A DNA stretch of 38,270 bases, from positions 1 through 38,270 of the IMG/VR virus record IMGVR_UViG_2609459790_000001; one strand, written 5' to 3'. Source of the stretch: a virus. Taxonomy: Duplodnaviria > Heunggongvirae > Uroviricota > Caudoviricetes. The notes under the pieces were generated by a model. It was not told where the DNA came from. It did not search any database and saw only the letters and a list, made by a program, of their open reading frames with translations. A program made the translations under genes and the position numbers. Below are positions 88 to 38,234 of the stretch, in pieces. Position 1 is the stretch's first letter, and each line of letters begins with the position of its first letter.

Positions 88-1158
88 TTATTTGATTTCA
101 ATTTTGTCCCACTCCCTGCCTCTGTCATCACGATACTGTGATGCCATGGTGTCCGACTTATGCCCGAGAAGATGTTGAGCAAATTTATCGCTTATCTGCT
201 TCTCATAGAGTCTTGCAGACAAACTGCGCAACTCGTGAAAGGTTGGCGGATCCCCTTCGAAGGAGAGACCTGATGCTTTTCGTGCGCGCATAAAATACCT
301 TGATACTGTGCCGGATGAAAGCGGTTCACGACGAGTAGATGCAATTATGGTTTCTCCGCCAAGAATCTTTTTGCATTTATCAAGTGTTTCCTTCATTGAT
401 ATCCCGAGAGCATCAACATGCAATGTTGTTGGGATGGCAATTTTTACGCCTGTTTTGCTTTGCTCGACATAAAGATATCCATCTACGATATCAGACCACT
501 TCATTTCGCATAAATCACCAACTCGCTGCCCGGTAACAACAGCCAGTTCCATTGCAAGTCTAAGCCAACATGGTGATGATTCTGCTGCTTGATAAATTTT
601 CAGGTATTCGTCAGCCGTAAGTCTTGATCTCCTTACCTCTGATTTTGCAGCGCGAGTGGCTGCGACCGGGTTTGTTGTTATATGGCCTTCAGCTATAGCC
701 TCTCGGAATGCATCGCTCAGTGTTGATCTGATTAACTTGGCTGATGCCGCCTTGCCCTCGTCTATGTATCCATTGAGCATTGCCGCAATTTCTTTTGTGG
801 TGATGTCTTCAAGTGGAGCATCAGGCAGACCCCTCCTTATTGCTTTAATTTTGCTCATGTAATTTATGAGTGTCTTCTGCTTGATTCCTCTGCTGGCCAG
901 GATTTTTTCGTAGCGATCAAGCCATGAATGTAACGTAACGGAATTATCACTGTTGATTCTCGCTGTCAGAGGCTTGTGTTTGTGTCCTGAAAATAACTCA
1001 ATGTTGGCCTGTATAGCTTCAGTGATTGCGATTCGCCTGTCTCGGCCTAATCCAAACTCTTTACCCGTCCTTGGGTCCCTGTAGCAGTAATATCCATTGT
1101 TTCTTATATAAAGGTTAGGGGGTAAATCCCGGCGCTCATGACTTCGCCTTCTTCCCAT
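88..1158 (-). CDS. int: Tyrosine integrase, lambda Int type
   Basis: 356 aa translation matches lambda Int essentially over full length (MGRRRSHERRDLPPNLYIRNNGYYCYRDPRTGKEFGLG ... catalytic region with HELRSLSARLYEKQ and GHKSDTMASQY). Confidence 0.97.
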   Translation of the reverse strand: MGRRRSHERRDLPPNLYIRNNGYYCYRDPRTGKEFGLGRDRRIAITEAIQANIELFSGHKHKPLTARINSDNSVTLHSWLDRYEKILASRGIKQKTLINYMSKIKAIRRGLPDAPLEDITTKEIAAMLNGYIDEGKAASAKLIRSTLSDAFREAIAEGHITTNPVAATRAAKSEVRRSRLTADEYLKIYQAAESSPCWLRLAMELAVVTGQRVGDLCEMKWSDIVDGYLYVEQSKTGVKIAIPTTLHVDALGISMKETLDKCKKILGGETIIASTRREPLSSGTVSRYFMRARKASGLSFEGDPPTFHELRSLSARLYEKQISDKFAQHLLGHKSDTMASQYRDDRGREWDKIEIK

Positions 1159-1381: not shown

Positions 1382-1401
1382 AAAAAACCGCCATCAGGCG
1401 G
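1382..1401 (-). terminator. Candidate intrinsic terminator on minus strand upstream of xis
   Basis: Minus-strand hairpin (stem CCGCC/GGCGG, loop UGAU) followed by a run of six U; plus-strand sequence AAAAAACCGCCATCAGGCGG. Confidence 0.35.
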
Positions 1402-1649
1402 CTTGGTGTTCTTTCAGTTCTTCAATTCGAATATTGGTTACGTCTGCATGTGCTATCTGCGCCCATATCATCCAGTGGTCGTAGCAGTCGTTGATGTTCT
1501 CCGCTTCGATAACTCTGTTGAATGGCTCTCCATTCCATTCTCCTGTGACTCGGAAGTGCATTTATCATCTCCAAAAAACAAACCCCGCCGTAGCGAGTTC
1601 AGATAAAATAAATCCCCGCGAGTGCGAGGATTGTTATGTAATATTGGGT

Positions 1650-2812: not shown

Positions 2813-3465
2813 CCTTCACAGTTGTAATCACTACAGCCTTCAAAATCATATGGGTTGTACTGCCAGGTGATTTTTCCGCAATGCGGACAATTCCAACGCA
2901 CCTTCCCGCTTCGCGACTTCTTTCTTCTGTTCTGCTTTTTCAACCAGTCAGGCATGACCAAACCTGCGCCCTGAACCATTGTTCTGCGGTTAAAGTTATT
3001 GATATTGAACGTCAGGCGCTTTGCTGAATCAGCAATGGAAAATGGCAACCAAACTATTCCTGGTTCGTTTTTGTTGGCGACGCTAAAGATGGTCGCTTTA
3101 CTGAAGTCATCTGTTGGCAATCCACCGTGTTGAAGCCAGTAAACATCGTTGCCGTTCCAGCTACCTTTTTTGTAGGCCACATACGCAGTGCAATCTGGCT
3201 CAATCAGGTTTTCTGTAGGGATGTACTGGCAATCAACGTGCCACACAGCCATTGCATCCACGCTATCAGCGCAAACAGGCTGATCGATATCTCGACCACA
3301 ATTCCAGGCTTTTTGGGCTTCTTCCAGCGTGTAAACATGAGCGCGATCGATATTAGAACTGTAACCATTGCCGTTATGGCAATGGAATGAAGCGTTATTA
3401 CCCACAGTTTCACGCAAGCACATCATGTAAAAGCGGTTATTCACTGGCTGCCTCCTTTGCGCCAC
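2800..3465 (-). CDS. Hypothetical Cys/His-rich protein with C-terminal zinc-ribbon-like motif (CPHCGK ... CSDYNCEGW)
   Basis: 221 aa ORF, non-ATG (GTG) start in the track, overlaps ea22 start by 13 nt suggesting translational coupling; no family recognised. Confidence 0.55.
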
Positions 3466-7209: not shown

Positions 7210-7743
7210 TTACTGGCTCCGTCCATGATTTTCATGAAAGCCATATAGTGCATTGGCTTCTTTCCTTGCTTGTTTGGCATCATCTAAAAGTTTGAATGAG
7301 CCTAGGTATTTTCGTTTTCCATCCACAGTTATCGATGCAACATAAAACCCATGCTCTTTTCTTGCTTCAACACCTGTAACTCCAGTTGATGAAGATGATT
7401 TTAAAGGCATGTTTTTCATATTCTCTTTGAAAGAAACGCTTCTTAAATTGGAGATTCTGTTGTCATCCTTAACGCCGTTTATGTGATCAATCACATCAGG
7501 CCAGTAGCCATGCACGTAAAGCCATGCAAGTCTGTGAGACTTAAATTTTTTACCTCCAATATTTATTCTCAGATAACCCTTGTTGTCAGGTGAGCCAGCC
7601 TTTTTACCTGGATACTTCTTGTTCCACGTCAAGGCAGCTCTGTTATCCGCAAACAAATGCTTTGCTCTCGGCTTCCAATAAAAGTCACCACTCACAGGAT
7701 TGTAATGAAGAATCTCCCTTACAGACGCTTGAGTAAGATCCAC
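7210..7743 (-). CDS. HNH endonuclease with AP2-type DNA-binding domain (homing-endonuclease-like), first gene of the PL operon
   Basis: 177 aa; motif YWPDVIDHINGVKDDNRISNLR (HNH_3 type) and a C-terminal AP2-like segment; GTG start with AGGAGG ribosome-binding site. Confidence 0.85.
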   Translation of the reverse strand: MDLTQASVREILHYNPVSGDFYWKPRAKHLFADNRAALTWNKKYPGKKAGSPDNKGYLRINIGGKKFKSHRLAWLYVHGYWPDVIDHINGVKDDNRISNLRSVSFKENMKNMPLKSSSSTGVTGVEARKEHGFYVASITVDGKRKYLGSFKLLDDAKQARKEANALYGFHENHGRSQ

Positions 7744-8049: not shown

Positions 8050-8781
8050 TTAGTAATCAACTACAGACCACCAGAAAATTCTTCCGATGATCTCAATGTC
8101 ACTTAGATTCTTTTCTTCTTGTGGGTATTCCAGTGAGTTAAAGCTTCTAATGCTTACCTTGTCAGGCCCTGTTCGAAAGAGAATCTTAATGCGTTTCCAA
8201 CCGTTCTCGTTAATGGCGTAAATCTTTCCGTCAACTATTTTCTTATCGTTGGTGTTAACAGCAACTGTTGTTCCATCAGGAATGTTTGGCTCCATGCTGT
8301 TGCCACGAGCCGGAAAACAAACAACCCCGCTTCCATCACTGTTCGCGCCAACTCTGCGAAGGGTTGATTTGGAAAAGCGCAACATAAAGCCGTTGTGATC
8401 TTCATCAATCACCCGACCATCCCCGCATGCAAACTCAATATCTTTAAGGTAAGGAATTTCAACTTCATCACCTCTTAAAGGCGTTCCTCCATCCCATGGG
8501 TCCAAACACCCCCACGTGCTTTCATGAGGAATAGAAGATTTTGGATCATAAGGTTCAACTCCCTCATCACGCATTGGCCCAGTTCCATCGGAAAGCCATT
8601 CCGTACGAACTCCAAGCACTTTTGATATTTCAAAAAGTTTGCGCGTATTGCGTGTTTTTCCAGACGTAAGTTTCCAGACGCTTGGCTGAGACATGCCAAC
8701 AGCATTGCCAAGAGAAGCCTGAGTAAACCCAGCCTGATCCATCGCGTATGTAAGCCTTTGAGAAAAAGTATCTAGTTTCAT
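8050..8781 (-). CDS. cI: CI-type prophage repressor (HTH domain plus LexA-like S24 autopeptidase domain)
   Basis: 243 aa; N-terminal HTH (QASLGNAVGMSQPSVWKL), C-terminal S24 motifs GNSMEP and downstream Lys; divergent from cro. Confidence 0.9.
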   Translation of the reverse strand: MKLDTFSQRLTYAMDQAGFTQASLGNAVGMSQPSVWKLTSGKTRNTRKLFEISKVLGVRTEWLSDGTGPMRDEGVEPYDPKSSIPHESTWGCLDPWDGGTPLRGDEVEIPYLKDIEFACGDGRVIDEDHNGFMLRFSKSTLRRVGANSDGSGVVCFPARGNSMEPNIPDGTTVAVNTNDKKIVDGKIYAINENGWKRIKILFRTGPDKVSIRSFNSLEYPQEEKNLSDIEIIGRIFWWSVVDY

Positions 8782-14235: not shown

Positions 14236-14884
14236 TGGCAGCAAATACCGAAATATTTGGGTAGTTGGCGATCTGCACGGATGCTACACGAACCTGATGA
14301 AAAAACTGGAGACGATAGGATTCGACACCAAAAAAGACCTGCTTATCTCGGTTGGCGATTTGGTCGATCGCGGTACAGAGAACGTCGAATGCCTGGAATT
14401 AATCACATTCCCCTGGTTCAGAGCTGTACGTGGAAACCATGAGCAAATGATGATTGATGGCTTATCAGAGCGCGGAAACGTCAATCACTGGATGCTTAAT
14501 GGCGGTGGCTGGTTCTTTAATCTCGATTACGACAAAGAAATTCTGGCCAAAGCTCTTGCCCATAAAGCAGATGAACTTCCGTTAATCATCGAACTGGTGA
14601 GTAAAGGTAAAAAATATGTCATCTGCCACGCCGATTATCCTTGTGACGAATACGAGTTTGGAAAGCCAGTTGATCATCAGCAGGTAATCTGGAACCGCGA
14701 ACGAATCAGCAACTCACAAGACGGGATCGTGAAAGAAATCAAAGGAGCGGACACGTTCATCTTTGGTCATACGCCAGCAGTGAAACCACTCAAGTTTGCC
14801 AACCAGATGTATATCGATACCGGCGCAGTGTTCTGCGGAAACCTCACATTGATTCAGGTACAGGGAGAAGGCGCGTGGGCATAA
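14213..14884 (+). CDS. ninI: Ser/Thr protein phosphatase (lambda NinI / lambda PPase)
   Basis: From [29 protein letters not shown] with metallophosphatase motifs GDLHG, GDLVDRG, GNHE; matches lambda phosphatase. Confidence 0.92.
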
Positions 14885-17370: not shown

Positions 17371-17850
17371 ATGACCCAGCATATTGGCGTAAAACTGATT
17401 AACGCCTTTCCGATGACGAGACAGGCATATAACGATTTTCGTGGCTGGCAGCTTCCTGCCGGAGAAAACGGCGAGGACGAAGGCTATCTGGTTGAATATC
17501 TGGATGGCGGAAAACCTAACACCGATCGCTTTGATGGCTACGTTAGCTGGAGTCCAAAAGAAGTATTCGAAAAGGCTTATCGTCCGGTATCAGGACTAAG
17601 TTTCGGCCTTGCCATGGAAGCGTTAAAACAGGGCAAAAGTTTGCAGCGGGCAGGATGGAATGGGAAAGACCAGTTTGTTTATCTCGTGAAAGGGGAAAAA
17701 TTAGCGTCTGCGTTGGGTTATGGCTTTGGCGAATATGTTGGCGAGCCAACTTTCAATGACACGCTTGTATTGAAAAACTCACAGAACCGCCTTGCTACAT
17801 GGGTTCCATCCATTGGCGACCTGATGGCTGAAGACTGGCAAATCATTTAA
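17371..17850 (+). CDS. DUF2829-domain protein (Tad2-like; candidate anti-Thoeris signalling-molecule sponge)
   Basis: 159 aa; C-terminal half LSFGLAMEALKQGKSLQRAGWNGKDQFVYLV ... WVPSIGDLMAEDWQI fits the DUF2829 signature (F-x-x-A-x-x-A-L-K-x-G-K ... R-x-G-W-N-G-K ... L-x-x-E-D-W) as I recall it. Confidence 0.6.
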   Translation: MTQHIGVKLINAFPMTRQAYNDFRGWQLPAGENGEDEGYLVEYLDGGKPNTDRFDGYVSWSPKEVFEKAYRPVSGLSFGLAMEALKQGKSLQRAGWNGKDQFVYLVKGEKLASALGYGFGEYVGEPTFNDTLVLKNSQNRLATWVPSIGDLMAEDWQII

Positions 17851-18144
17851 CCATGTAGGCATTACAAAGCCTATCTACGGGTGGGCTTGATAATGAAACC
17901 GGAATTTATTCTGGGTAACCAGTTACGGCAGTACAGCGAAACAACCCAAGCCAGTAAGTGGGGAAATAACACTGGCAGCCACTGAAAGATGAACCTCCAG
18001 CCTTATGGCAAAAAAGATTCTTTGTGGTGGCGGACTGATGGAAAGACATCGGATAGAATCAAGCAGTGGCTAGGGTAGCTCCCGAAAAGCGGAATCGTCA
18101 CCGCCAGCCACTGAATCTATGACGAACAACTAGACGAGGTTGAT

Positions 18145-29847: not shown

Positions 29848-31212
29848 ATGGCTACGTGGCAACAGGGTATTAATTCTGGTGGTTTTCTGGCTGGCATCGG
29901 TACGCAAAATGAGAATGCGCCAAAGGCAAGCGACATTAACGCAACGCTTGGTCTGATCCGCGAAAACAATGAACTGGCTCGCTCAGGTGCAAATAACGTT
30001 GGTCTGACCGCGTTACGTGGTCTGGCTGGAGTTGCTGATATTTATAAGCAGGAACAGCAACAGAAAGCGATTAATGCGTTCAATAAGGTTCATGCTGATG
30101 CATGGGCTTCTGGTGATCCATCGGGACTATTTAAGTTTGCCAAGGAAAATCCAGCGTTTGTTGCGCAGGCACAACAGGCGTTTTCCGGTCTTAATGAGCA
30201 GCAACGCAACGATATGGGCGATTTAGCCATGAGGGCTAACGTCGCTCTTTCTCAGGGACCGGAAGCCTACAGTAAATTCATTACTGACAACAAGGACAGG
30301 TTAAATCGTGTGGGTGCGAATGCTGACTGGATGATTCAGACAGGTATCCAGAATCCAGAGCAGCTATCACACATGCTGACTACTATGTCTCTCGGTGCGC
30401 TTGGACCAGAAAAGGCGTTTGCTGTTCAGGACAAGATGGCTGGTCGTGAAATTGACCGAGGCAGACTGGCAGAGACAATCCGCAGCAATCAGGCTGGCGA
30501 GGCGCTAACAGCGCGTGGTCAGAATATCACGATGCGCGGTCAGGATTTATCGATGCAGAGAGCATCAATGAAAGGGTCGGTTGGGAATAATGAGCGTACA
30601 GTTCAGTTAGCAGATGGCAGAACTGTAACGGTAGGCGGGAAGCTTCACGGCGCTGGGGCTAATGCGTTCTACGAAGGTATCGACAACGAGGGGAATATGG
30701 TTCGCGTCCCTGCTGGCTCTATTGCCGCTCCGGCTACATCGGCAGCAAGCGCGCAGAATTACGCAATGAAGAAAGATCTTGATGCAATTTCTGGTGCATC
30801 AATTGACGATCTTGGCTTCATGACTGGCATTACAGGCTCTTCAGGTTCTCCTGCTCTTGGTGCAGATATTCGTAGCCGTGCATCTGGTGGTGATCAGAGG
30901 AAACTATACAACGCTGCACAGCGAATCCAAGGAAAGATGCAGAATCAGGGCATTGCAGCAGCCAGAGACATGGGGGCATCCGGTATCAACACCGTTGCAG
31001 AAGCAAAGATGTATTTTCAAGGTATGCCACAGGTTGATTTCTCAAGCCCTGAAGCACTGCAACAATCAATGCGCGACATTCAGCAATATACCGACAATTA
31101 CAACCAACAATATAACGTTAATGTTGGTAAATCTCAGCGGCAGCAATCTCAACCTACACAGGTATCACAGCCAGCAGCCAGCAGTAACTTTTCTTCACTA
31201 TGGGGTGATTAA
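29848..31212 (+). CDS. 20: Ejection protein (P22 gp20-like)
   Basis: 454 aa in the gene 20 position. Confidence 0.82.
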
Positions 31213-33077
31213 TGGCTAAAGCATGGAAAGATGTTATCGCCTCTCCACAGTATCAGGCGTTAACTGAAGAACAGAAAGCACAGGCTCAAGCGCAATATTT
31301 TGATGAGGTTGTTGCCCCTAAGGCTGGTGACAAATGGGCTGAAGCAAGAGATCAGTTTTATGCAGCATACCCTCCGCCTCAGCAGCAGAAAGAAGAACCA
31401 TCATTGATGCAACAAGCTGGTGATTGGCTCACAGGTGGTCAAAGTGCAGGGCAAATTGCAGAGCAGGCTGGTCGTGGTCTGGTAAACATACCATTCGACG
31501 TATTACAGGGCGGCGCAAGCCTGATTAATGCAATCAGCCAGGGGCTTGGTGGCCCCAAGGTTTTGGATGATGTTTATCGTCCAGTCGATCGACCGACAGA
31601 CCCTTACGCGCAAGCTGGTGAAACAATTGGCGGGTATTTAGTTCCAGGAGTTGGAACGGCAGGAAGCATGGCTATTGGATCACTGGCAGAGGCCGCAAAT
31701 CAGAAAGGCGATTTCGCACAAAATGCAACTAAAAATGCCGGAGTTAACCTTGCCGCTCAGGGGGTTCTTTCCGCAGCAGCAAAGGGAATAGGGCGTGGAA
31801 TTACTGCTGTTCGTGGCGAAATATCACCAGCAGATCAGCAATTGCTCAAGCGTGCCGCTGCGGCAGATGTACCAGTTATGACATCGGATGTAGTTCCTCC
31901 AAAAACAAAACTTGGCAATCAACTGCAGGGTTACTCAGAAGGAGTCATAGCTGGGACTGGACCAATGAGAGCCGCACAGCAGGATGCTAGAACCAAGCTT
32001 GTTAATCGCTTCACCGAAAAATACGGCGACTACGATCCATCTGTAGTCGTTGATAGTCTAAAGTCAGGCGTTGCAAGGGAAAAATCGTTAGCCAAGTCAA
32101 AACTAAACAACCTGTCAGGAAGAATGGTTGGAAAGCCAGTTGATACAAGTGGCGCCATAAGAGCTATCGACGGAGCAGTAAACGAACTTGGGAAACTTAA
32201 AGGTGTTTCTGACACCCAGACCATTTCTGCGCTTAATGATTATAAGAATGCCATTCAGGAGATAACAAATGGAGATGATGCCTTTGAGTTACTTGATAAG
32301 CTGAGAACTCAGTTCCGCATTGACGTAAAAGGCGATCGTACAGTTCTGCCATCAATGTCGCAAACAATGGTCGACAGGGTCTACAACTCGCTAACCAATA
32401 GCCTTAGTAAATCTATAGCGAAAGGACTTAGCCCAAAAGATGCTTCAGCATGGAGAGCGGGAAAAGCTGATTATGCAAAAATGGCAACACATGCAACTCA
32501 AACGCGCCTTAAAAACGTTCTAAACAAAGGAGATTTAACTCCCGAGGCTGTAAATACCATTGTGTATGGACAATATGGGTCAGATATAGCTCGATTGTAC
32601 GGGAAACTCGATCAAAAAGGTAAAGACATGCTAAGGGCGGCATATATCAGCAAAATAGCTGACAAGGTAGGTGACAGCCCTCAGAAAATGATGACCGAGC
32701 TTGGCAAGCTGCAAAAACAAGCAAATGGTCAGGTGTTTAAAACTGTATTTGGTGGGAAGAACGGAAAAGAGATAGAGGGGATGTTATCTATTCTCGATGC
32801 TACCAAAAGAGCATCTGAGGCTAATGTTGTGACGAAGACTGGCATGACACTCGCGCCTTTGGTAAGGGTTATTGGTAACCTAAAAACCGGAGGCGCGCTA
32901 TTGGCTGGGGAAACAGGGATTGGCCTTATGTCGAGGGTTTATGAAAGCCCTATGGCCAGGAATGCGCTCTTACGTCTGGCAAACACCAAAGCAGGAACAC
33001 CAGCCTATGAAAGAGCGCTAAATAACGCTGCGAATGCCATCAGACCGCTGTTTGCCACTGAGGCAACACAGCAGTGA
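31212..33077 (+). CDS. 16: Ejection protein (P22 gp16-like)
   Basis: 621 aa in the gene 16 position, last gene of the rightward morphogenesis block. Confidence 0.82.
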   Translation: MAKAWKDVIASPQYQALTEEQKAQAQAQYFDEVVAPKAGDKWAEARDQFYAAYPPPQQQKEEPSLMQQAGDWLTGGQSAGQIAEQAGRGLVNIPFDVLQGGASLINAISQGLGGPKVLDDVYRPVDRPTDPYAQAGETIGGYLVPGVGTAGSMAIGSLAEAANQKGDFAQNATKNAGVNLAAQGVLSAAAKGIGRGITAVRGEISPADQQLLKRAAAADVPVMTSDVVPPKTKLGNQLQGYSEGVIAGTGPMRAAQQDARTKLVNRFTEKYGDYDPSVVVDSLKSGVAREKSLAKSKLNNLSGRMVGKPVDTSGAIRAIDGAVNELGKLKGVSDTQTISALNDYKNAIQEITNGDDAFELLDKLRTQFRIDVKGDRTVLPSMSQTMVDRVYNSLTNSLSKSIAKGLSPKDASAWRAGKADYAKMATHATQTRLKNVLNKGDLTPEAVNTIVYGQYGSDIARLYGKLDQKGKDMLRAAYISKIADKVGDSPQKMMTELGKLQKQANGQVFKTVFGGKNGKEIEGMLSILDATKRASEANVVTKTGMTLAPLVRVIGNLKTGGALLAGETGIGLMSRVYESPMARNALLRLANTKAGTPAYERALNNAANAIRPLFATEATQQ

Positions 33078-33094
33078 CTAAATGCCATGGATGG

Positions 33095-33307
33095 TTATTT
33101 CCCTAGCACATGAAACAATGTTTGCTTTAATTCCACCCATACAATTATGACCACTATAGACAGACAAAAGAAACTGAATGCATTGGCATCACGATCGAAA
33201 CCTTCTCCGGCACTAAATCCGTAAAAGGTCATAAAAAATATAAAAATTGCGCACTTTGCAACGTTTACAAATTTTTTCTTCACACCAACCTCCTTAGTTT
33301 TGAGCAT
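33095..33307 (-). CDS. Hypothetical small membrane protein (weak call)
   Basis: 70 aa ORF with two hydrophobic segments; no clear ribosome-binding site. Confidence 0.3.
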   Translation of the reverse strand: MLKTKEVGVKKKFVNVAKCAIFIFFMTFYGFSAGEGFDRDANAFSFFCLSIVVIIVWVELKQTLFHVLGK

Positions 33308-33336
33308 GACGAAATTAACCAGCCATCAGGCTGGTA

Positions 33337-33519
33337 TTAGTCACATTCTATTTCTTTTGTCGAGGTCCATACATAAGGGTCTGAGCAAACAACCTCACCA
33401 TTTATCATGACGTCATAGCCCATTAGATATGAGTTACCACCAACAATCTGAGCGGCTATGACGCTAATGCTGGCGGCGCAGGCTGCACCAAAAACGAAAC
33501 CAATTAATATATTTTTCAT
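33337..33519 (-). CDS. Hypothetical small exported/membrane protein
   Basis: 60 aa ORF with N-terminal hydrophobic signal-like segment [23 protein letters not shown] and two Cys. Confidence 0.45.
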
Positions 33520-33541
33520 TTTAATTCCAAATAGTTATAGG

Positions 33542-33736
33542 ATGAAAGTTATGACCATAGAAGAACGTCTGAACAACATTGAGTTAAACCAAACCCTGCT
33601 TGACCAGCGCCTTTCAGATCTTGAGCTTAAAGATCTTGATGCGCAAATATCAGAAGCAGAAGCCAAGCTCTCCAGCTTAAACCACCGTAAGAAGCAAATC
33701 CGCAATAGAATTACTCAGGGACGCGGAAGTTGTTGA
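33542..33736 (+). CDS. Hypothetical small coiled-coil protein
   Basis: 64 aa from the ATG at 33542 (MKVMTIEERLNNIELNQTLLDQRLSDLELKDLDAQISEAEAKL...). Confidence 0.45.
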   Translation: MKVMTIEERLNNIELNQTLLDQRLSDLELKDLDAQISEAEAKLSSLNHRKKQIRNRITQGRGSC

Positions 33737-33745
33737 AATCATAGT

Positions 33746-34063
33746 CTATTTTTTCTCAGAGCTCATATTGTAATAGGTGGTATAAATAGAGATTGATTTC
33801 TGACATGCTTCAAGAAATTGCTGCGGAGTCATCCCAAGCCTTGCTTGCTCTGTAGTAAGGAATCTCTGTAAGAATTCATTCCCACCCGGCATGTTTGTAG
33901 ATTCTTGGAATATTGCCATTTGTTTGATTGCACCACACATACCAGCCATTTTCGAAGCTATCATGAGGCCTTGTATTTCATCAAAACTGCTATCGTCTGA
34001 TTTTGTTTCTGCGTTAGCTATGCTCGAGAGACACAGGAGCAATAGGATAGCGATACGTTTCAT
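33746..34063 (-). CDS. Hypothetical secreted protein co-transcribed downstream of mnt
   Basis: 105 aa with classical signal peptide MKRIAILLLLCLSSIANA; start overlaps the mnt stop (ATGA). Confidence 0.65.
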   Translation of the reverse strand: MKRIAILLLLCLSSIANAETKSDDSSFDEIQGLMIASKMAGMCGAIKQMAIFQESTNMPGGNEFLQRFLTTEQARLGMTPQQFLEACQKSISIYTTYYNMSSEKK

Positions 34064-34311
34064 TTTTCACCATTGCCATGCATACATTTTAACTTCTCAA
34101 CATCATGCTCAAGCTCTATCAGTCGCGATGCTATAGTTGCAAGATCTAGTGCTTGAATGTGTTTGTTTTTTTCGGTCCATGCTTCAAGTGCTGCGACCAT
34201 CTCAGCATTTAATGAACGAGAATTAGCCTCAGCCAGTTCAATAAGACGTTCCTTTATCTCTACAGGAAGCCTCAGATTCACTTGAGGGTTTTTGTACTTA
34301 CGATCAGACAT
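34060..34311 (-). CDS. mnt: Mnt-like ribbon-helix-helix repressor (immI region)
   Basis: 83 aa, same length as P22 Mnt, N-terminal RHH motif VNLRLPVEIKERLIELAEANSRSLNAEMVAALE; divergent from arc-ant. Confidence 0.8.
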   Translation of the reverse strand: MSDRKYKNPQVNLRLPVEIKERLIELAEANSRSLNAEMVAALEAWTEKNKHIQALDLATIASRLIELEHDVEKLKCMHGNGEK

Positions 34312-34340
34312 CGGCGCATCCTGAATAATTTTTTACCACA

Positions 34341-34404
34341 GGATATGTAGGTATCTATTGACTATCAATGCGTACCTAAATACTATGTATGCGTACCACA
34401 TACA
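34341..34404. promoter_or_regulatory. immI control region: Pant promoter with Arc/Mnt-type operators
   Basis: TTGACT (34358..34363), 17-nt spacer, TACTAT (34381..34386); palindromes AGGTA...TACCT around the -35 and TGTATG...CATACA over the -10/+1. Confidence 0.6.
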
Positions 34405-34415
34405 AAGGAGCAAAA

Positions 34416-34562
34416 ATGAAAGTTAAGACATTAAGGATGCCAGAATGGCTGGAAAAGGCTTTGGAGCAGTCCGCGAAAAAGGATGATCGGTCGTTCAGTA
34501 ATGAGGTATTGAGGAGACTAAAGGAGTCAGTAGCTAAGGATGGAATTGTTTGTCCAGAATGA
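34416..34562 (+). CDS. arc: Arc-like ribbon-helix-helix repressor
   Basis: 48 aa ORF not in the track (MKVKTLRMPEWLEKALEQSAKKDDRSFSNEVLRRLKESVAKDGIVCPE) with AAGGAG ribosome-binding site, between mnt and ant. Confidence 0.7.
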   Translation: MKVKTLRMPEWLEKALEQSAKKDDRSFSNEVLRRLKESVAKDGIVCPE

Positions 34563-34628
34563 GTAAAGCCCAAGCTATTGCGAGTAGCTCGGGCTTAAAT
34601 CGCCAGTAAATTTTGAGGAAAAACTGAC

Positions 34629-35558
34629 ATGAAAAGTATAGCAACAGCAGTATCTACTATCAACGTGCCATTCCACGGCGAAGAGCTTTATGTCGTCAAT
34701 CACAACGGTGAGCCGTACACCCCAATGAAACCTATCGTTGAAGGTATGGGTATGGATTGGGCTTCACAGTTTACGAAAATAAAGCAACGGTTTAAAACCT
34801 CCATTGTGAAAATCACAATGCAGCTTCCTGGTGATGAACAGTGCCGTGAGATTATTTGTTTGGCACTTCGCAAACTTGCTGGCTGGCTGCAAACCATCAG
34901 CCCTAACAAAGTCCGCCCTGAAATCCGCGACAAGGTAATCCAGTATCAGGAAGAGTGTGACGATGTGCTCTACGAGTACTGGACTAAAGGCCATGTAGTT
35001 AACCCACGCAAAGCTAAAAAGGCGTTGCTGGGTAAAATCACCACTGAACAGCAGGAAGCCATTAAACAACTCGTCATGAGTCGCGGTCAGTCTCTGCCAA
35101 AAGAAAAACAGGCGAAGGCGATGATCACCATGTGGTCGTCACTGAAATCCCATTTTGGATGTTCGTACAAAGAAATCAGTGAGGAGCAGTTTACCGAAGC
35201 ACTGTCACTTGCAGCTCGAGTTCCACTTGAAGGTGAGTTCATTGGCAAACAAGAGAAGAAGACCAACGATCTTTCTGCAAAAGAAGCAAACAGTCTTGTA
35301 TGGTTATGGGATTATGCCAACCGCTCACAGGCATTATTCCGCGAACTGTATCCGGCGCTAAAACAAATTCAATCGAACTATTCCGGCAGATGCTACGACT
35401 ACGGTCATGAGTTCTCGTATGTTGTCGGAATGGCGAGAGACGTTTTAATCAATCACACACGAGATGTTGATATTAATGAGCCAGACGGACCAACGAATCT
35501 TTCCGCATGGATGAGACTTAAGAATAAAGAATTACCTCCTTCAGTACATAACTACTGA
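34629..35558 (+). CDS. ant: Antirepressor Ant
   Basis: 309 aa ORF in the position of P22 ant (300 aa) immediately downstream of arc; called from gene order and size, not from recalled sequence identity. Confidence 0.88.
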
Positions 35559-35574
35559 CAGATAACCAACGCAA

Positions 35575-35600
35575 CGACCCAGCTTCGGCTGGGTTTTTTT
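35575..35600 (+). terminator. Intrinsic terminator after ant
   Basis: CCCAGC-TTCG-GCTGGG followed by TTTTTTT. Confidence 0.75.
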
Positions 35601-35658
35601 ATGCCCAAAATTCACCGTAGCAACGCTGCGGCGATTCCTTGCATCTGGAGCAAATTAA

Positions 35659-37725
35659 ATGACAGACATTACAGCCAATGTGATTGTATCGATGCCTTCG
35701 CAACTCTTCACTATGGCGCGTTCTTTTAAAGCCGTAGCCAATGGCAAAATTTATATCGGTAAAATTGACACTGACCCGGTAAATCCTGAAAACCAGATTC
35801 AGGTTTATGTAGAGAGTGAAGATGGTTCTCACGTTCCTGTTTCGCAACCAATCATCATTAACGCTGCTGGTTACCCTGTATATAACGGACAGATTGCCAA
35901 ATTCGTTACCGTGCAAGGCCATTCTCTGGCTGTTTATGATGCGTATGGTGCTCAGCAGTTCTATTTTCCTAATGTGCTTAAGTATGACCCTGACCAGCTA
36001 AGACAGAAGTTAGATGGTGTTGGTGGGGTTAATTTAGTAAATGGGGCATTACATGGTGCCATGGATTCAGATCCAAATGTTGGTTTTAAAATCACCACAT
36101 CCTCAGGTGAGATTTACGAATATGCTCCGGGAATTACAGGTCTTGCCGATGGGTTTTCGGTATCAGCATCACAGTTATATTTAACAAGGAATGGCCTATC
36201 TTATAAATACTCTTCACCTCATAACACACTGGTTTGGCCATCTCAGTATATCGATACGAGTGCTGATGCGAAATATTCAATTGAATCTATTATGGCGCAC
36301 GGATTGAATGTGGACCTTAACGGAACTACAGTAAAAGCCAGCACCATTAATATTACGAAAGATTTGATTAATGGTGAAATTGTTGCTATCGGAGATGAAG
36401 GATCATTTATAACAGTAAACTCATGCATGCTTAACAATATTAAAGTTAACTGCAATATGATGGCAATTAGAAGGCCTGTTCATATCAAAACAGGGGCTGT
36501 TAATCCAGTAGTTAAGAATGTTGATGTTTTTGATAGTAATGGTTCTCAACTAACTTATGGTATTTTCATAGATGCAAATTCTGTATTGAATTTTGTCGTT
36601 GATAACATATCAATACATAATATTACCACCATTGGAAATGGTATTCAGATTGATGTAATTGGGCCATGTCGAGGGGTTATTGTAGGAACGGCACTTGATC
36701 CAGTACCATCAAATGATGATGAGGTATCAAGTGGAGTTATAAGTAACGTAAGGGTTTACAAGCTAAACCCTTGGGAAGATGCTGATGGTGTTGTTATTCA
36801 GATTTACAACTCATCATCAAATATGCTCAGCGGGAAGAAAATAAAGGTTGATGGCGTTTATACTTACAATGCACTTAAGCGAGCAGTTAAAGTTCAGGCC
36901 AATGATGTTACAGTAACAAATGTATTTGCGGTTTGTGATGACGCCTCAGCAACTAACCCTATGTATAGTTGTGTTAGTGTTTATGGTAGTTCCTGTGTTG
37001 TTCGTGGTGTTAGTGGGCGAGGAAGGATTGGCAATGGTGTTGATTCATCTGATGGGTTCAATACTATCAGTGATGTTTATCTTAAGACGACAGCAACCTA
37101 TGAGCTAAGCGCAGGTCTACAGATAACTTCCGGGCAGGTAAACGCGAATAACATTCACTCTGAAGGATCAAGATACATAGTCGCAATTCGGGCAGTTAAT
37201 AACACAACACCGTATGTAAATATTAATGGCATATATGGGCAAGGTTATGACGGGGCGATTTTGTTAGAAATCAGATACGGATTTAATATTGGTAATGTTT
37301 ACTTAAGTGATATTTCAGTATCAAGTTCAAATCCCACAAGGTCTTCATTCTTCTTTGATATATTATCAGGTGGAATGATATCTCTTATCAGCGTGTCAGA
37401 CGTCAAGAGAATCAGTCAGGCATATAACGGACCAGATATAAACATTTCTGGTGGGGTTAAAAAAGCTATTGTTAAAAATTCAGTTTTTGAGAGTGGTTCG
37501 TCAAGCATTGGTGTATCAATGGCAACTGGTACTTTAGTTGCATCAAATATATCAGCACAAAGTAAATCTTATGCTGTCAGCGCTACACAAACCACAAATT
37601 CACTTATAAATAACATTGATGGAATCGTTAGGGTTGATAGCACAACCAACAGTAATGTCGGCCTTTACAGAGGGATTACCCCTGTTGGGACTAACACAGG
37701 ACTGAAAACTGTTTTCTATATATAA
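35659..37725 (+). CDS. 9: Tailspike protein: HK620/P22-type N-terminal head-binding domain fused to a divergent beta-helix receptor-binding domain
   Basis: N-terminal ~115 aa ([52 protein letters not shown]...NVLKYDPDQ) matches remembered HK620/P22 tailspike; the remainder is AT-rich and differs from both. Confidence 0.92.
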
Positions 37726-37921
37726 TTATATATAACCTTTTGATGTTTTATATGATGTTATCTTGGCAGGGACGCCAGCAATAGTGCAATTTCCATCTTT
37801 AAAATCTTTGTTAACGACTGCATTCGCGCCTATTGCACAATTGTCACCTATAACTATCTTCCCGTAAATTTTTGCTCCAGGACCAATGTAGCAATTATCA
37901 CCAATTACAGGGGATTCAAGT
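37726..37921 (-). pseudogene. 3' fragment of a hexapeptide-repeat acetyltransferase gene, truncated at a junction with IS3
   Basis: Minus-strand frame reads ...[64 protein letters not shown]-stop (left-handed beta-helix acetyltransferase C-terminus); the reading frame ends at the IS3 junction with no start. Confidence 0.6.
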
Positions 37922-38234
37922 CCTGCTCCAACAGATTTTCTGACACAGGCAGGCCGTGTGCGCGGTAGCTGACCGGGCTGAACTTCCGGGAGGCCTTTGC
38001 CCTCAGTCCCTGACGGCGCAGGCTTGCCGCCACGGTTTTTACGTTAAAGGGGTAACCCTGAGCACGCAGTTCATCCGTCAGGCGTGGGGCACCGTAACGC
38101 TGTTTTGACCGGGTAAAAGCCGCGAGGACAACGCTGTCGCAGTGTTGGCGGAACTGCTGACGCGTGCTTATCCTTGTCCGCCGCTGACACCACGTATACC
38201 AGCCGCTGCGGGCCACCCGGAGCACGCGGCACAT
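37922..38234 (-). pseudogene. insF: IS3 transposase orfB (InsF) N-terminal fragment
   Basis: First ~104 codons of IS3 orfB in frame, then divergence and a stop at the junction (track ORF 37905..38234 reads through the junction for 5 unrelated codons). Confidence 0.85.

Follow-up and report, generated by a model that had tools for sequence, protein, structure and literature searches.

A P22-type immI module with candidate control sites unlike those of P22 in a 38-kb P22-like prophage

Genomic Context of the Module

The question raised by this locus is whether neighbouring genes resembling mnt, arc and ant form a functional immI module of the P22 type, or represent its decaying remnant, or a pair of repressors serving another purpose. 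The window (the whole stretch of 38,270 nucleotides that was analysed) constitutes a whole P22-like prophage of 38 kb, in which the integrase, cI, cro, cII, the DnaB-type helicase, the gp16 homologue, the module and the tailspike follow one another in the same order as in annotated P22, and the module sits between the homologues of gene 16 (ejection protein) and gene 9 (tailspike), as in P22. An earlier note on this DNA had reported mnt, arc, ant, a promoter TTGACT-17-TACTAT and a hairpin at 34566-34596, and each of these was recovered where it had been placed by means of the ORF list, Pfam and the promoter scan, as shown in Table 1. The same note had stressed that the prophage carries two layers of repression; the cI-type repressor and immI are indeed both present, but nothing special attaches to the pairing, which is canonical because P22 has the same one with c2. 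The genes of the module are intact and under purifying selection, three predicted promoters lie at P22 positions, and both the fold of the sar RNA and the core of the mnt-arc spacer are conserved. The module is considered to be a functional P22-type immI in a P22-like prophage, with a probability of about 0.85. It is ordinary in kind, being the textbook P22 immI circuit with all its parts in the expected places, so that its discovery value is low and its practical value modest, and the allele is one that is little studied in detail.

Table 1. Coordinates in the window, strand and supporting evidence of the module, its control sites and the related prophage genes.
Feature	Position	Strand	Evidence or remark
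cI/C2-type prophage repressor gene	8050..8781	-	HTH_3 and Peptidase_S24; PHROG 4, transcriptional repressor
Gene 16 homologue	31212-33077		Upstream of the module; 621-aa ORF; E. coli counterpart annotated 'DNA transfer protein'
Signal-peptide protein gene, 105 aa	33746..34063	-	phrog_19844, no assigned function; its ATG and the stop codon of mnt share the sequence ATGA
mnt-type maintenance repressor gene, 83 aa	34060..34311	-	Pfam Arc/ribbon-helix-helix, E 3e-10
Candidate Pmnt promoter	34340..34368	-	TTGATA-17-TATCCT; consensus scan, 9/12
Candidate operator region A	34344..34382	.	39-bp inverted repeat, imperfect, with the abutting -35 hexamers at its centre (repeat search)
Pant promoter, driving arc and ant	34358..34386	+	TTGACT-17-TACTAT; consensus scan
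Candidate operator B	34387..34403	.	17-bp near-palindrome GTATGCG-TAC-CaCATAC (repeat search)
arc-type repressor gene, 48 aa	34416..34562	+	First gene of the ant operon; Pfam Arc, 25.1 bits (cut-off 20.4)
Predicted sar-type antisense RNA, ~68 nt	34561..34628	-	Complementary to the ant ribosome-binding site; Rfam, fold, covariation
sar terminator stem-loop	34566-34596	-	Arms AAGCCCAAGCT / AGCTCGGGCTT at 34566-34576 and 34586-34596
sar 5' stem-loop	34601-34628	-	Per-sequence folds; anti-Shine-Dalgarno loop
ant antirepressor gene, 309 aa, intact	34629..35558	+	P22_AR_N 7e-45 and P22_AR_C 3e-29, both full length
Candidate Psar promoter	34635..34663	-	TTGATA-17-TATACT with TG extension; inside ant codons 3-12; 10/12
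Intrinsic terminator after ant	35576..35602	+	Stem of 8 bp, then a T run (terminator scan)
Tailspike gene	35659-37725		Downstream of the module; Pfam Head_binding 4e-65, P22 head-binding domain

Conservation of the Encoded Proteins

Different levels of identity to known proteins were observed for the three products of the module. Ant shares 61% identity with P22 Ant and 91% with CUS-3 Ant, and its likeness to the P22 protein is mosaic, reaching 49% in the N-terminal domain, 22% in the middle segment and 91% in the C-terminal third; the divergent N-terminal domain covers residues 1-125 and the conserved C-terminal domain residues 197-309. A pseudogene form of ant, judged against relatives, had been named in the earlier note as an outcome that would overturn its reading; the gene is, however, full length with complete domains, and several IMG/VR relatives at 97–99% identity align to all 309 residues. 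The terminator that follows ant occupies the same position as the annotated ant terminator of P22, and the cI/C2-type repressor encoded at 8050-8781 is the presumed target of Ant. Arc displays 31% identity to P22 Arc over 39 amino acids, and comparison of its gene with that of the relative L038 revealed 14 synonymous and no non-synonymous differences, which indicates that arc is a real gene under strong purifying selection.

Mnt shares 29% identity with P22 Mnt and 94% with ECRS218_0005 of CUS-3, and its best match among solved structures is 1mnt (E 4.5e-5). Its layout comprises an N-terminal ribbon-helix-helix and a C-terminal helix, with helices at residues 17-48 and 57-78 in an AlphaFold monomer model, which was built from the single sequence, yields secondary structure only and, as a monomer, is uninformative for a dimeric or tetrameric ribbon-helix-helix protein. 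The recognition strand of Mnt (PQVNLRLP) resembles that of P22 Arc (PQFNLRWP) and is unlike that of P22 Mnt (PHFNFRMP); it is invariant among relatives, whereas the strand of Arc is variable. The 105-aa gene that follows mnt is probably the second gene of an mnt operon, with which it would be co-transcribed; in P22, orf59a lies between mnt and its annotated terminator.

Predicted Promoters and Candidate Operators in the mnt-arc Spacer

Only three promoter-like sites were detected by the scan of positions 33600-35750, and these correspond to the positions of Pant, Pmnt and Psar in P22, although their number is not above that of shuffled sequences (3 found, 4.1 expected). The Pant promoter reported in the earlier note is conserved across genera, with TTGACT invariant and TAnTAT kept in all relatives, and its position relative to arc is the same in the window and in P22. 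In relatives of six genera the candidate Pmnt promoter, with a leftward start predicted near 34333, retains its -35 hexamer as well as the TAnnnT positions within the -10 hexamer.

Two candidate operators were delimited in the spacer. Region A is near-invariant across genera, and operator B directly follows the -10 hexamer of Pant and spans the start point predicted near 34393, a position comparable to that occupied by Omnt in P22. The left half of operator B is invariant and its right arm is largely kept across relatives, in three of which a G at 34398 renders the palindrome perfect. Three GTAyC units recur at a spacing of 21 bp, two of them in region A (34351 and 34372) and one in the operator B palindrome (34393), and an exact 9-mer, ATGCGTACC, is found only twice in the 38-kb window, both copies being in the spacer, 21 bp apart. 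The best short palindrome of the 104-nt spacer is not above dinucleotide shuffles (320 of 2000 score as high); as the palindrome and promoter statistics are at chance level, these elements draw their weight only from position and conservation.

That conservation is pronounced. In comparison with L038 the spacer core is 98.7% identical, against 74% for the 5' part of mnt and 90.5% for arc, and the block at 34352-34397 is nearly invariant from E. coli to the loci of Arsenophonus, Phlomobacter, Xenorhabdus, Photorhabdus, Chimaeribacter and Pantoea, despite Mnt identities of just 42–59% in those six-genus loci, and of 50–59% over the range from E. coli to Photorhabdus and Arsenophonus. On the other hand, the P22 operators Omnt (AGGTCCACGGTGGACCT) and Oarc (ATGATAGAAGCACTCTACTAT) have no match anywhere in the window with up to three mismatches allowed, and regulation by Mnt and Arc is thus argued from homology and from the conservation of the spacer. 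The palindromes that the earlier note had read in the spacer as operators are present and conserved, but they are not the P22 operators and do not exceed chance as palindromes; we treat them as candidate operators on the strength of conservation and not of palindrome statistics.

Several further assignments were attempted and discarded. Co-variation of operators with recognition strands did not connect sites to proteins, the variable DNA positions, in the right arm of the 17-bp palindrome, being untied to Arc type. TAGA boxes of the kind found in the operator of P22 Arc were considered as a target of the Arc-like strand of Mnt, and one TAGA/TAGG pair only, with different spacing, was found. 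A LexA box at Pant has been reported for some other Ant systems; here the only CTG-N15-CAG, at 34321-34341, has the wrong spacing and is not conserved.

The Predicted sar Antisense RNA

The hairpin that the earlier note had pointed out between arc and ant, where P22 has sar, proved to be the terminator stem of a predicted sar-type RNA, accompanied by a promoter and a 5' stem-loop. The promoter, Psar, is the best promoter match in the region, and its -10 hexamer TATACT stands as far from the ATG of ant as does that of the annotated P22 Psar. The comparison of the arc-ant spacer with sar that had been suggested returned a full-length alignment with Rfam RF00262 (minus strand, 34562-34628, model positions 1-68, 29.3 bits, E 7.6e-4 in a 551-nt search) and the same two-hairpin fold as P22 sar. 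This score lies below the gathering score of 43 bits, so that the element is not listed at that threshold, whereas 97.8, 84.6 and 70.1 bits were obtained with the same tool for the sar of P22, of CUS-3 and of the relative L007, respectively. The low score is explained by differing stem sequences in which pairing is kept by compensatory changes, and the Rfam model accordingly misses divergent but structurally conserved sar RNAs. A covariance model built here scores the window's sar at 92 bits, and the plus strand weakly, at 27 bits.

The fold on the minus strand has an energy of -25.9 kcal/mol (z -5.5, 0 of 200 shuffles as stable), as against -20.6 kcal/mol (z -3.3) on the plus strand, and the same pair of hairpins is formed by each of the 29 distinct relatives examined, with a minus-strand advantage of 4–11 kcal/mol in every case. 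Among relatives, 99.5% of the cells of the terminator helix are paired, with compensatory changes in 6 of 12 pairs; its pairing and covariation scores were reached by none of 500 shuffles, and slid controls gave 28–55%. An alignment with MAFFT mis-registered the 5' stem between sequence types, and per-sequence folds and the covariance model were used instead. In the covariance-model alignment of 35 distinct sequences, which is fitted to the structure and so biased towards it, the paired share of cells is 98.5% for the sar strand and 83.7% for its complement, with covariation in 12 of the 18 sar pairs. The U tract of the sar terminator is weak (UUUACUCAUU) and was not flagged by the terminator scan, and that of P22 sar is similarly weak. 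The predicted two-hairpin RNA abuts the ant start codon and shares with RF00262 its orientation antisense to the ant leader, a length of about 68 nt and a 5' stem with an anti-Shine-Dalgarno loop, after which comes a GC-rich terminator stem of 12–14 bp.

Comparison with Known immI Systems

The likeness to P22 immI extends to gene order and orientation, the site between gene 16 and gene 9, the ribbon-helix-helix nature of both repressors, the domain architecture of Ant, the predicted divergent promoters in the mnt-arc spacer, the cI/C2-type primary repressor elsewhere in the genome, and the two-hairpin shape of sar on the antisense strand. Differences were also observed. The two spacer promoters of P22 overlap almost fully (14793-14821 and 14798-14826), whereas those of the window meet only at their abutting -35 hexamers (34358-34386 and 34340-34368); Arc of the window lacks the 6-residue N-terminal arm of P22 Arc; and the genes downstream of mnt differ from those of P22, sieA being absent from the window. 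Given that the operators of P22 are absent and its Mnt recognition strand is replaced by a different one, the module is not P22's own specificity allele. The missing P22 operators, the 29% identity of Mnt and the back-to-back promoters together indicate that it is, as judged from sequence, a distinct specificity allele within a known system, common to CUS-3 and many E. coli prophages.

The closest counterparts include the 'ant moron' of the E. coli K1 phage CUS-3 (CP000711; ECRS218_0004-0006), the mnt-arc spacer of which is nearly identical to that of the window, and the immI of Salmonella phage epsilon34 (genes 16-18), which is likened at the level of description. CUS-3 differs in carrying a second, P22-like mnt, an additional 67-aa Cys-rich ORF between arc and ant, and a P22-like sar (84.6 bits in Rfam), unlike the variant of the window. 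A comparison published in 2008 found CUS-3 to be apparently without arc (PMC2629481); the unannotated 46-aa ORF detected here, with an N-terminus (MKVKTLRMPE) identical to that of the window Arc and a C-terminal half that differs from it, suggests that the CUS-3-type 'ant moron' does carry an arc, short and divergent.

Discussion

Three other explanations have to be weighed against a functional immI. The module could be a decaying remnant, in which genes look complete while the spacer operators are lost or ant is nonfunctional, as in HK620, Scho1 and phage L; within P22-like late operons no part is more fluid than the stretch that separates gene 16 from gene 9, degraded arc and ant are documented there (PMC2629481, PMC8022706), and one relative of the window, L045, has lost mnt and arc and displays the pseudogene form of ant, with a frameshift. 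In the window, by contrast, the three ORFs keep their full length and complete domains, selection on arc is strongly purifying, the promoter-operator core surpasses the flanking genes in conservation and is kept across genera, and the structure of sar is preserved, which makes decay very improbable. Alternatively, the ribbon-helix-helix pair could serve elsewhere, in partition, in a toxin-antitoxin system, or only in modulating late read-through into the tailspike gene. The label 'partition protein ATPase' borne by phrog_795 and phrog_2685 (PHROG, RefSeq label) favours the first of these, and an effect of the P22 ant region on tailspike gene read-through has been proposed (PMC2629481). However, P22 mnt itself bears the same label in NC_002371, and the 83-aa ribbon-helix-helix protein has no ATPase domain in Pfam, so that the label is a propagated misnomer and the partition identity was rejected; moreover, no toxin or ParA-type gene is adjacent in the ORF list, and gene order, predicted divergent promoters and sar agree with immI in every point. 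A different purpose of the pair is thus scarcely credible, while a functional immI leaves room for an additional effect on tailspike read-through.

The remaining alternative concerns the hairpin alone, whose main action could be in the sense transcript, where it would attenuate or terminate between arc and ant instead of ending an antisense RNA. It begins 4 nt past the arc stop codon, it folds on plus-strand RNA as well, and that strand is weakly scored by the covariance model. Nevertheless, no T run follows the hairpin on the plus strand (AAATCGCC). Where its pairing is imperfect, the plus strand shows A.C mismatches and the minus strand G.U pairs, in the window as well as in P22 and relatives (90 G.U cells). 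The minus strand also carries, upstream of the hairpin, a strong promoter and a covarying 5' stem whose loop is anti-Shine-Dalgarno, and the same element is annotated as the sar terminator in P22. A mainly sense-strand role is therefore unlikely, although a secondary sense-strand effect may exist besides the sar role.

For the preferred reading of a functional immI, the roles of the P22 parts were taken from PMC11016777 and PMC2629481, and from these we infer which sites the repressors would occupy, where transcripts would end and how Ant would act on the repressor of this prophage. By analogy with P22, Mnt produced from the leftward promoter would keep the rightward Pant off in the lysogen, and no antirepressor would be made. 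Upon infection or loss of Mnt, Pant would become active and Arc and Ant would be made, after which Arc would lower Pant activity. The sar RNA of 68 nt, transcribed from a promoter inside the start of ant, would pair with the ant ribosome-binding site and limit translation of Ant, and Ant would bind the cI-type repressor non-covalently and inactivate it. Against this reading stands Gally, a related E. coli P22-like prophage, in which deletion of mnt left the survival of the bacteria inside macrophages unchanged (PMC9928086); the relation to Gally is drawn at the level of the prophage.

A wider interpretation, to which we give slightly less than even odds, is that the window exemplifies a second, uncharacterised immI architecture ('CUS-3 type'), which would combine all of the following: a conserved control cassette of mnt, back-to-back Pmnt and Pant, arc and sar; an operator layout unlike that of P22, with three GTAyC units phased at 21 bp and a 17–19 bp palindrome over the Pant start; an Mnt that naturally possesses the DNA-reading residues of P22 Arc (Gln, Asn, Arg); a spread from E. 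coli to prophages of Photorhabdus, Xenorhabdus and Arsenophonus; and interchangeable antirepressor cargo, either of the P22_AR type or of unrelated proteins. With the full overlap of the promoters gone, Mnt would be unable to switch on its own promoter by removing competition from Pant, as it does in P22, and the circuit logic would, if this interpretation is true, differ from that of P22. The phylogenetic footprint at 34352-34397 is the place in which to seek the operators of this allele, and studies of Arc and Mnt specificity gain a natural Mnt that has recognition residues like those of Arc and goes together with another set of operators.

Gene Content and Setting of the Module

The mnt-arc-ant module belongs to a well-known kind of system, of which it is a divergent, uncharacterised allele common to CUS-3 and many enterobacterial prophages. 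A complete P22-like prophage makes up the 38 kb window; it carries integrase and repressor genes (see the table), cro, cII and DnaB-type helicase genes, and long ORFs in series on one strand, presumably the morphogenetic genes, the last being a 621-aa ORF at the gene 16 position. The module sits between this ORF and the tailspike gene, exactly where sieA, orf59a, mnt, arc, sar and ant are annotated in P22 (NC_002371), a region for which Villafane et al. (PMC2629481) introduced the name "ant moron". The mnt, arc and ant genes, the promoter and the hairpin reported in the earlier note are all confirmed at the positions given there, and its interpretation is supported; the cI-type repressor and immI are also both present, but their pairing, presented there as two layers of control, is not unusual and follows the standard plan of P22, whose immC holds c2 and whose immI holds mnt-arc-ant (PMC11016777; PMC8022706).

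Three small ORFs with no assigned function (33337-33519 and 33095-33307, minus strand; 33551-33736, plus strand) occupy the interval that holds sieA and orf59a in P22. Elsewhere, an HNH endonuclease gene (7210-7743, minus) lies about 300 nt from the repressor gene, the product of 17371-17850 (plus) has a Tad2-like (Thoeris anti-defence 2) domain (Pfam 6e-22), an int-alpA RNA match lies about 200 nt downstream of this gene (18063-18125, plus; Rfam 41.8 bits, threshold 35.8), and an IS-type HTH_21 ORF (37905-38234, minus) lies beyond the tailspike gene, at the prophage's right end.

Features of the prophage and of its immI module
Feature	Position	Strand	Remarks
Integrase, lambda-type	88-1158	-	
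cI/C2-type repressor	8050-8781	-	HTH_3 and Peptidase_S24 domains
621-aa ORF, gene 16 position	31212-33077		"DNA transfer protein" by annotation in E. coli genomes
mnt	34060-34311	-	83 aa; Pfam Arc, E 3e-10
Candidate Pmnt	34340-34368		
Imperfect 39-bp inverted repeat	34344-34382		Candidate operator; centred on the two abutting -35 hexamers
Three GTAyC units	34351, 34372, 34393		Spacing exactly 21 bp
Candidate Pant	34358-34386	+	TTGACT-17-TACTAT
17-bp near-palindrome	34387-34403		Candidate operator; GTATGCG-TAC-CaCATAC; immediately 3' of Pant -10
arc	34416-34562	+	48 aa; Pfam Arc, 25.1 bits (cut-off 20.4)
Hairpin arms	34566-34576, 34586-34596		
ant	34629-35558	+	309 aa; P22_AR_N and P22_AR_C, both full
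Candidate Psar	34663-34635	-	TTGATA-17-TATACT with TG extension; best promoter match of the region; inside first ant codons
Tailspike	35659-37725		P22 head-binding domain, Pfam 4e-65

Integrity and Divergence of Mnt, Arc and Ant

Mnt and Arc are only 29% and 31% identical to those of P22, and the predicted DNA-reading strand of Mnt (PQVNLRLP) resembles that of P22 Arc (PQFNLRWP), unlike that of P22 Mnt (PHFNFRMP); the specificity of Arc and Mnt is reportedly set by these strand residues, in work associated with Knight and Sauer and with Raumann et al. The best match of Mnt among solved structures is the N-domain of P22 Mnt, 1mnt (E 4.5e-5), and its AlphaFold model (monomer) displays a separate C-terminal helix at 57-78, presumably where P22 Mnt carries its tetramerisation helix. 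The arc gene differs from its counterpart in L038, a related locus, by 14 synonymous and no non-synonymous changes, and judged by this pattern the short ORF is a protein under selection. Ant is 91% identical to that of CUS-3 and 61% to that of P22, the latter in a mosaic of 49% in the N-terminal domain, 22% in the middle and 91% in the C-terminal third. The possibility that ant is a pseudogene, raised in the earlier note, is dismissed by its full length, all 309 residues being matched at 97-99% identity by several IMG/VR relatives.

The label "partition protein ATPase", given to Mnt in PHROGs (phrog_795, phrog_2685) and in the RefSeq P22 record NC_002371, appears to be a propagated misannotation, the protein being a ribbon-helix-helix repressor of 83 aa. 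A 105-aa signal-peptide protein of unknown function (33746-34063, minus; phrog_19844), whose ATG overlaps the mnt stop codon (ATGA), is probably made together with Mnt in the lysogen. A decayed module was observed in L045 (IMGVR_UViG_2778261448_000010, 950-1668), where a 143-aa lipoprotein gene replaces mnt and arc, the sar terminator lacks one arm and a frameshift interrupts ant after 55 codons.

The mnt-arc Spacer: Candidate Promoters and Operators

The three promoter-like sites of the region occupy the P22 positions of Pant, Pmnt and Psar. Their number between 33600 and 35750 shows no excess (3, against 4.1 in shuffles), nor does a scored palindrome search of the spacer (320 of 2000 shuffles as high), and since neither rises above shuffles, these matches need outside support. 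Conservation provides the strongest such evidence: the spacer core is 98.7% identical to that of L038, compared with 74% for the 5' part of mnt and 90.5% for arc, while in loci of six other genera the block 34352-34397 is almost invariant despite Mnt identities of 42-59%, and the TAnnnT positions of the predicted Pmnt -10 are kept. Given this conservation, the promoters and operators are likely to be functional. The exact 9-mer ATGCGTACC occurs twice in the 38 kb, both copies inside the spacer, and in three relatives a G at 34398 makes the 17-mer palindrome perfect. The candidates for the operators announced in the earlier note are conserved repeats and a palindrome; the P22 operator sequences themselves have no match in the whole window with up to three mismatches.

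By position, the palindrome might tentatively be assigned as the Mnt-like site, because it lies over the Pant start point and could block Pant alone, and the 39-bp element as the Arc-like site, because it spans both -35 hexamers and could block both promoters. The P22 promoters Pant and Pmnt (14793-14821 and 14798-14826) overlap nearly fully, whereas those of the window share only the -35 hexamer junction. In P22, the removal of competition from Pant allows Mnt to activate Pmnt; if the Pmnt call is correct, this mechanism would not be transferable unchanged to the present allele, because of that limited overlap.

The Arc-Ant Hairpin and a Predicted sar-Type Antisense RNA

The hairpin forms the terminator stem of a predicted sar-type antisense RNA. 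The Rfam sar model (RF00262) aligned over its full length to the minus strand at 34562-34628, which bears out the P22 sar position proposed in the earlier note. The score, 29.3 bits, falls short of the gathering score (43). In a positive control, this search recovered P22 sar at its annotated coordinates (97.8 bits), and it also recovered CUS-3 sar (84.6 bits). The -10 of the candidate Psar and that of P22 Psar are equally far from the ant ATG. The minus-strand RNA folds into two hairpins, as in P22 sar, namely a 5' stem beginning at +1 with an anti-Shine-Dalgarno sequence in its loop, followed by a 12-bp terminator stem, with an energy of -25.9 kcal/mol (z -5.5; 0/200 shuffles equally stable), against -20.6 on the sense strand. 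Among 29 distinct versions of this arc-ant spacer from 80 IMG/VR Ant loci, all 29 exhibit this architecture, the antisense strand being 4-11 kcal/mol more stable in each. The terminator helix is 99.5% paired with compensatory changes in 6 of its 12 pairs, in an alignment fitted to no structure; none of 500 shuffles attained the observed pairing or covariation score, and sliding the partner by 1-3 columns left only 28-55% pairing.

A covariance model of our own, built on five sequences, detects the element beside every ant, and also in Arsenophonus, Phlomobacter, Xenorhabdus and Photorhabdus loci, on the correct strand and directly downstream of arc. Across 35 distinct sequences, whose alignment was fitted to this model and is biased towards the structure, 98.5% of cells are paired on the sar strand and 83.7% on the sense strand, because 90 cells are G.U pairs that become A.C mismatches on the opposite strand; 12 of 18 pairs covary. 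A hairpin acting mainly on the sense strand is unlikely, since no T run follows it there, although a side effect on that strand may accompany its role as sar terminator. Two sar-like elements were observed in L085 (Xenorhabdus littoralis; 1180-1240 and 738-814), one following arc and preceding an 83-aa ORF, the other abutting the start of a P22_AR-type ant.

CUS-3 and Other Relatives

The nearest described relative is the E. coli K1 phage CUS-3 (CP000711), with Mnt 94% and Ant 91% identical and a near-identical spacer. CUS-3 apparently lacked arc in a 2008 comparison (PMC2629481), but an unannotated 46-aa arc-like ORF at 2845-2985, past the spacer, shares its N-terminus with the window's Arc, and a 67-aa Cys-rich ORF (2982-3185) lies ahead of ant. 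Of the two mnt genes that CUS-3 also carries, one resembles that of P22 and the other is of the type found in the window. The stretch 33000-35700 is present, over 80% or more of its length and at about 95-98% identity, in 14 complete E. coli genomes, where the NCBI pipeline has named the genes "Arc family DNA-binding protein" and "phage antirepressor".

In L083, L087, L090 and L091 (Arsenophonus, Photorhabdus, Chimaeribacter and Pantoea), the mnt-spacer-arc cassette precedes proteins with N-termini unlike P22 Ant, which suggests that the cargo behind it is exchangeable; the module may represent a distinct operator/promoter architecture with interchangeable antirepressor cargo. Among these four loci, sar-like matches occur only in L083 and L087. 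In L092 (about 1400-1500, reverse strand), an Armatimonadia MAG contig whose taxonomic label may be unreliable, a distant Mnt-like gene (42% identical) lies beside a P22_AR-type ant, and the spacer holds three GGACCACGGTGGTCC-like boxes resembling the P22 Mnt operator AGGTCCACGGTGGACCT.
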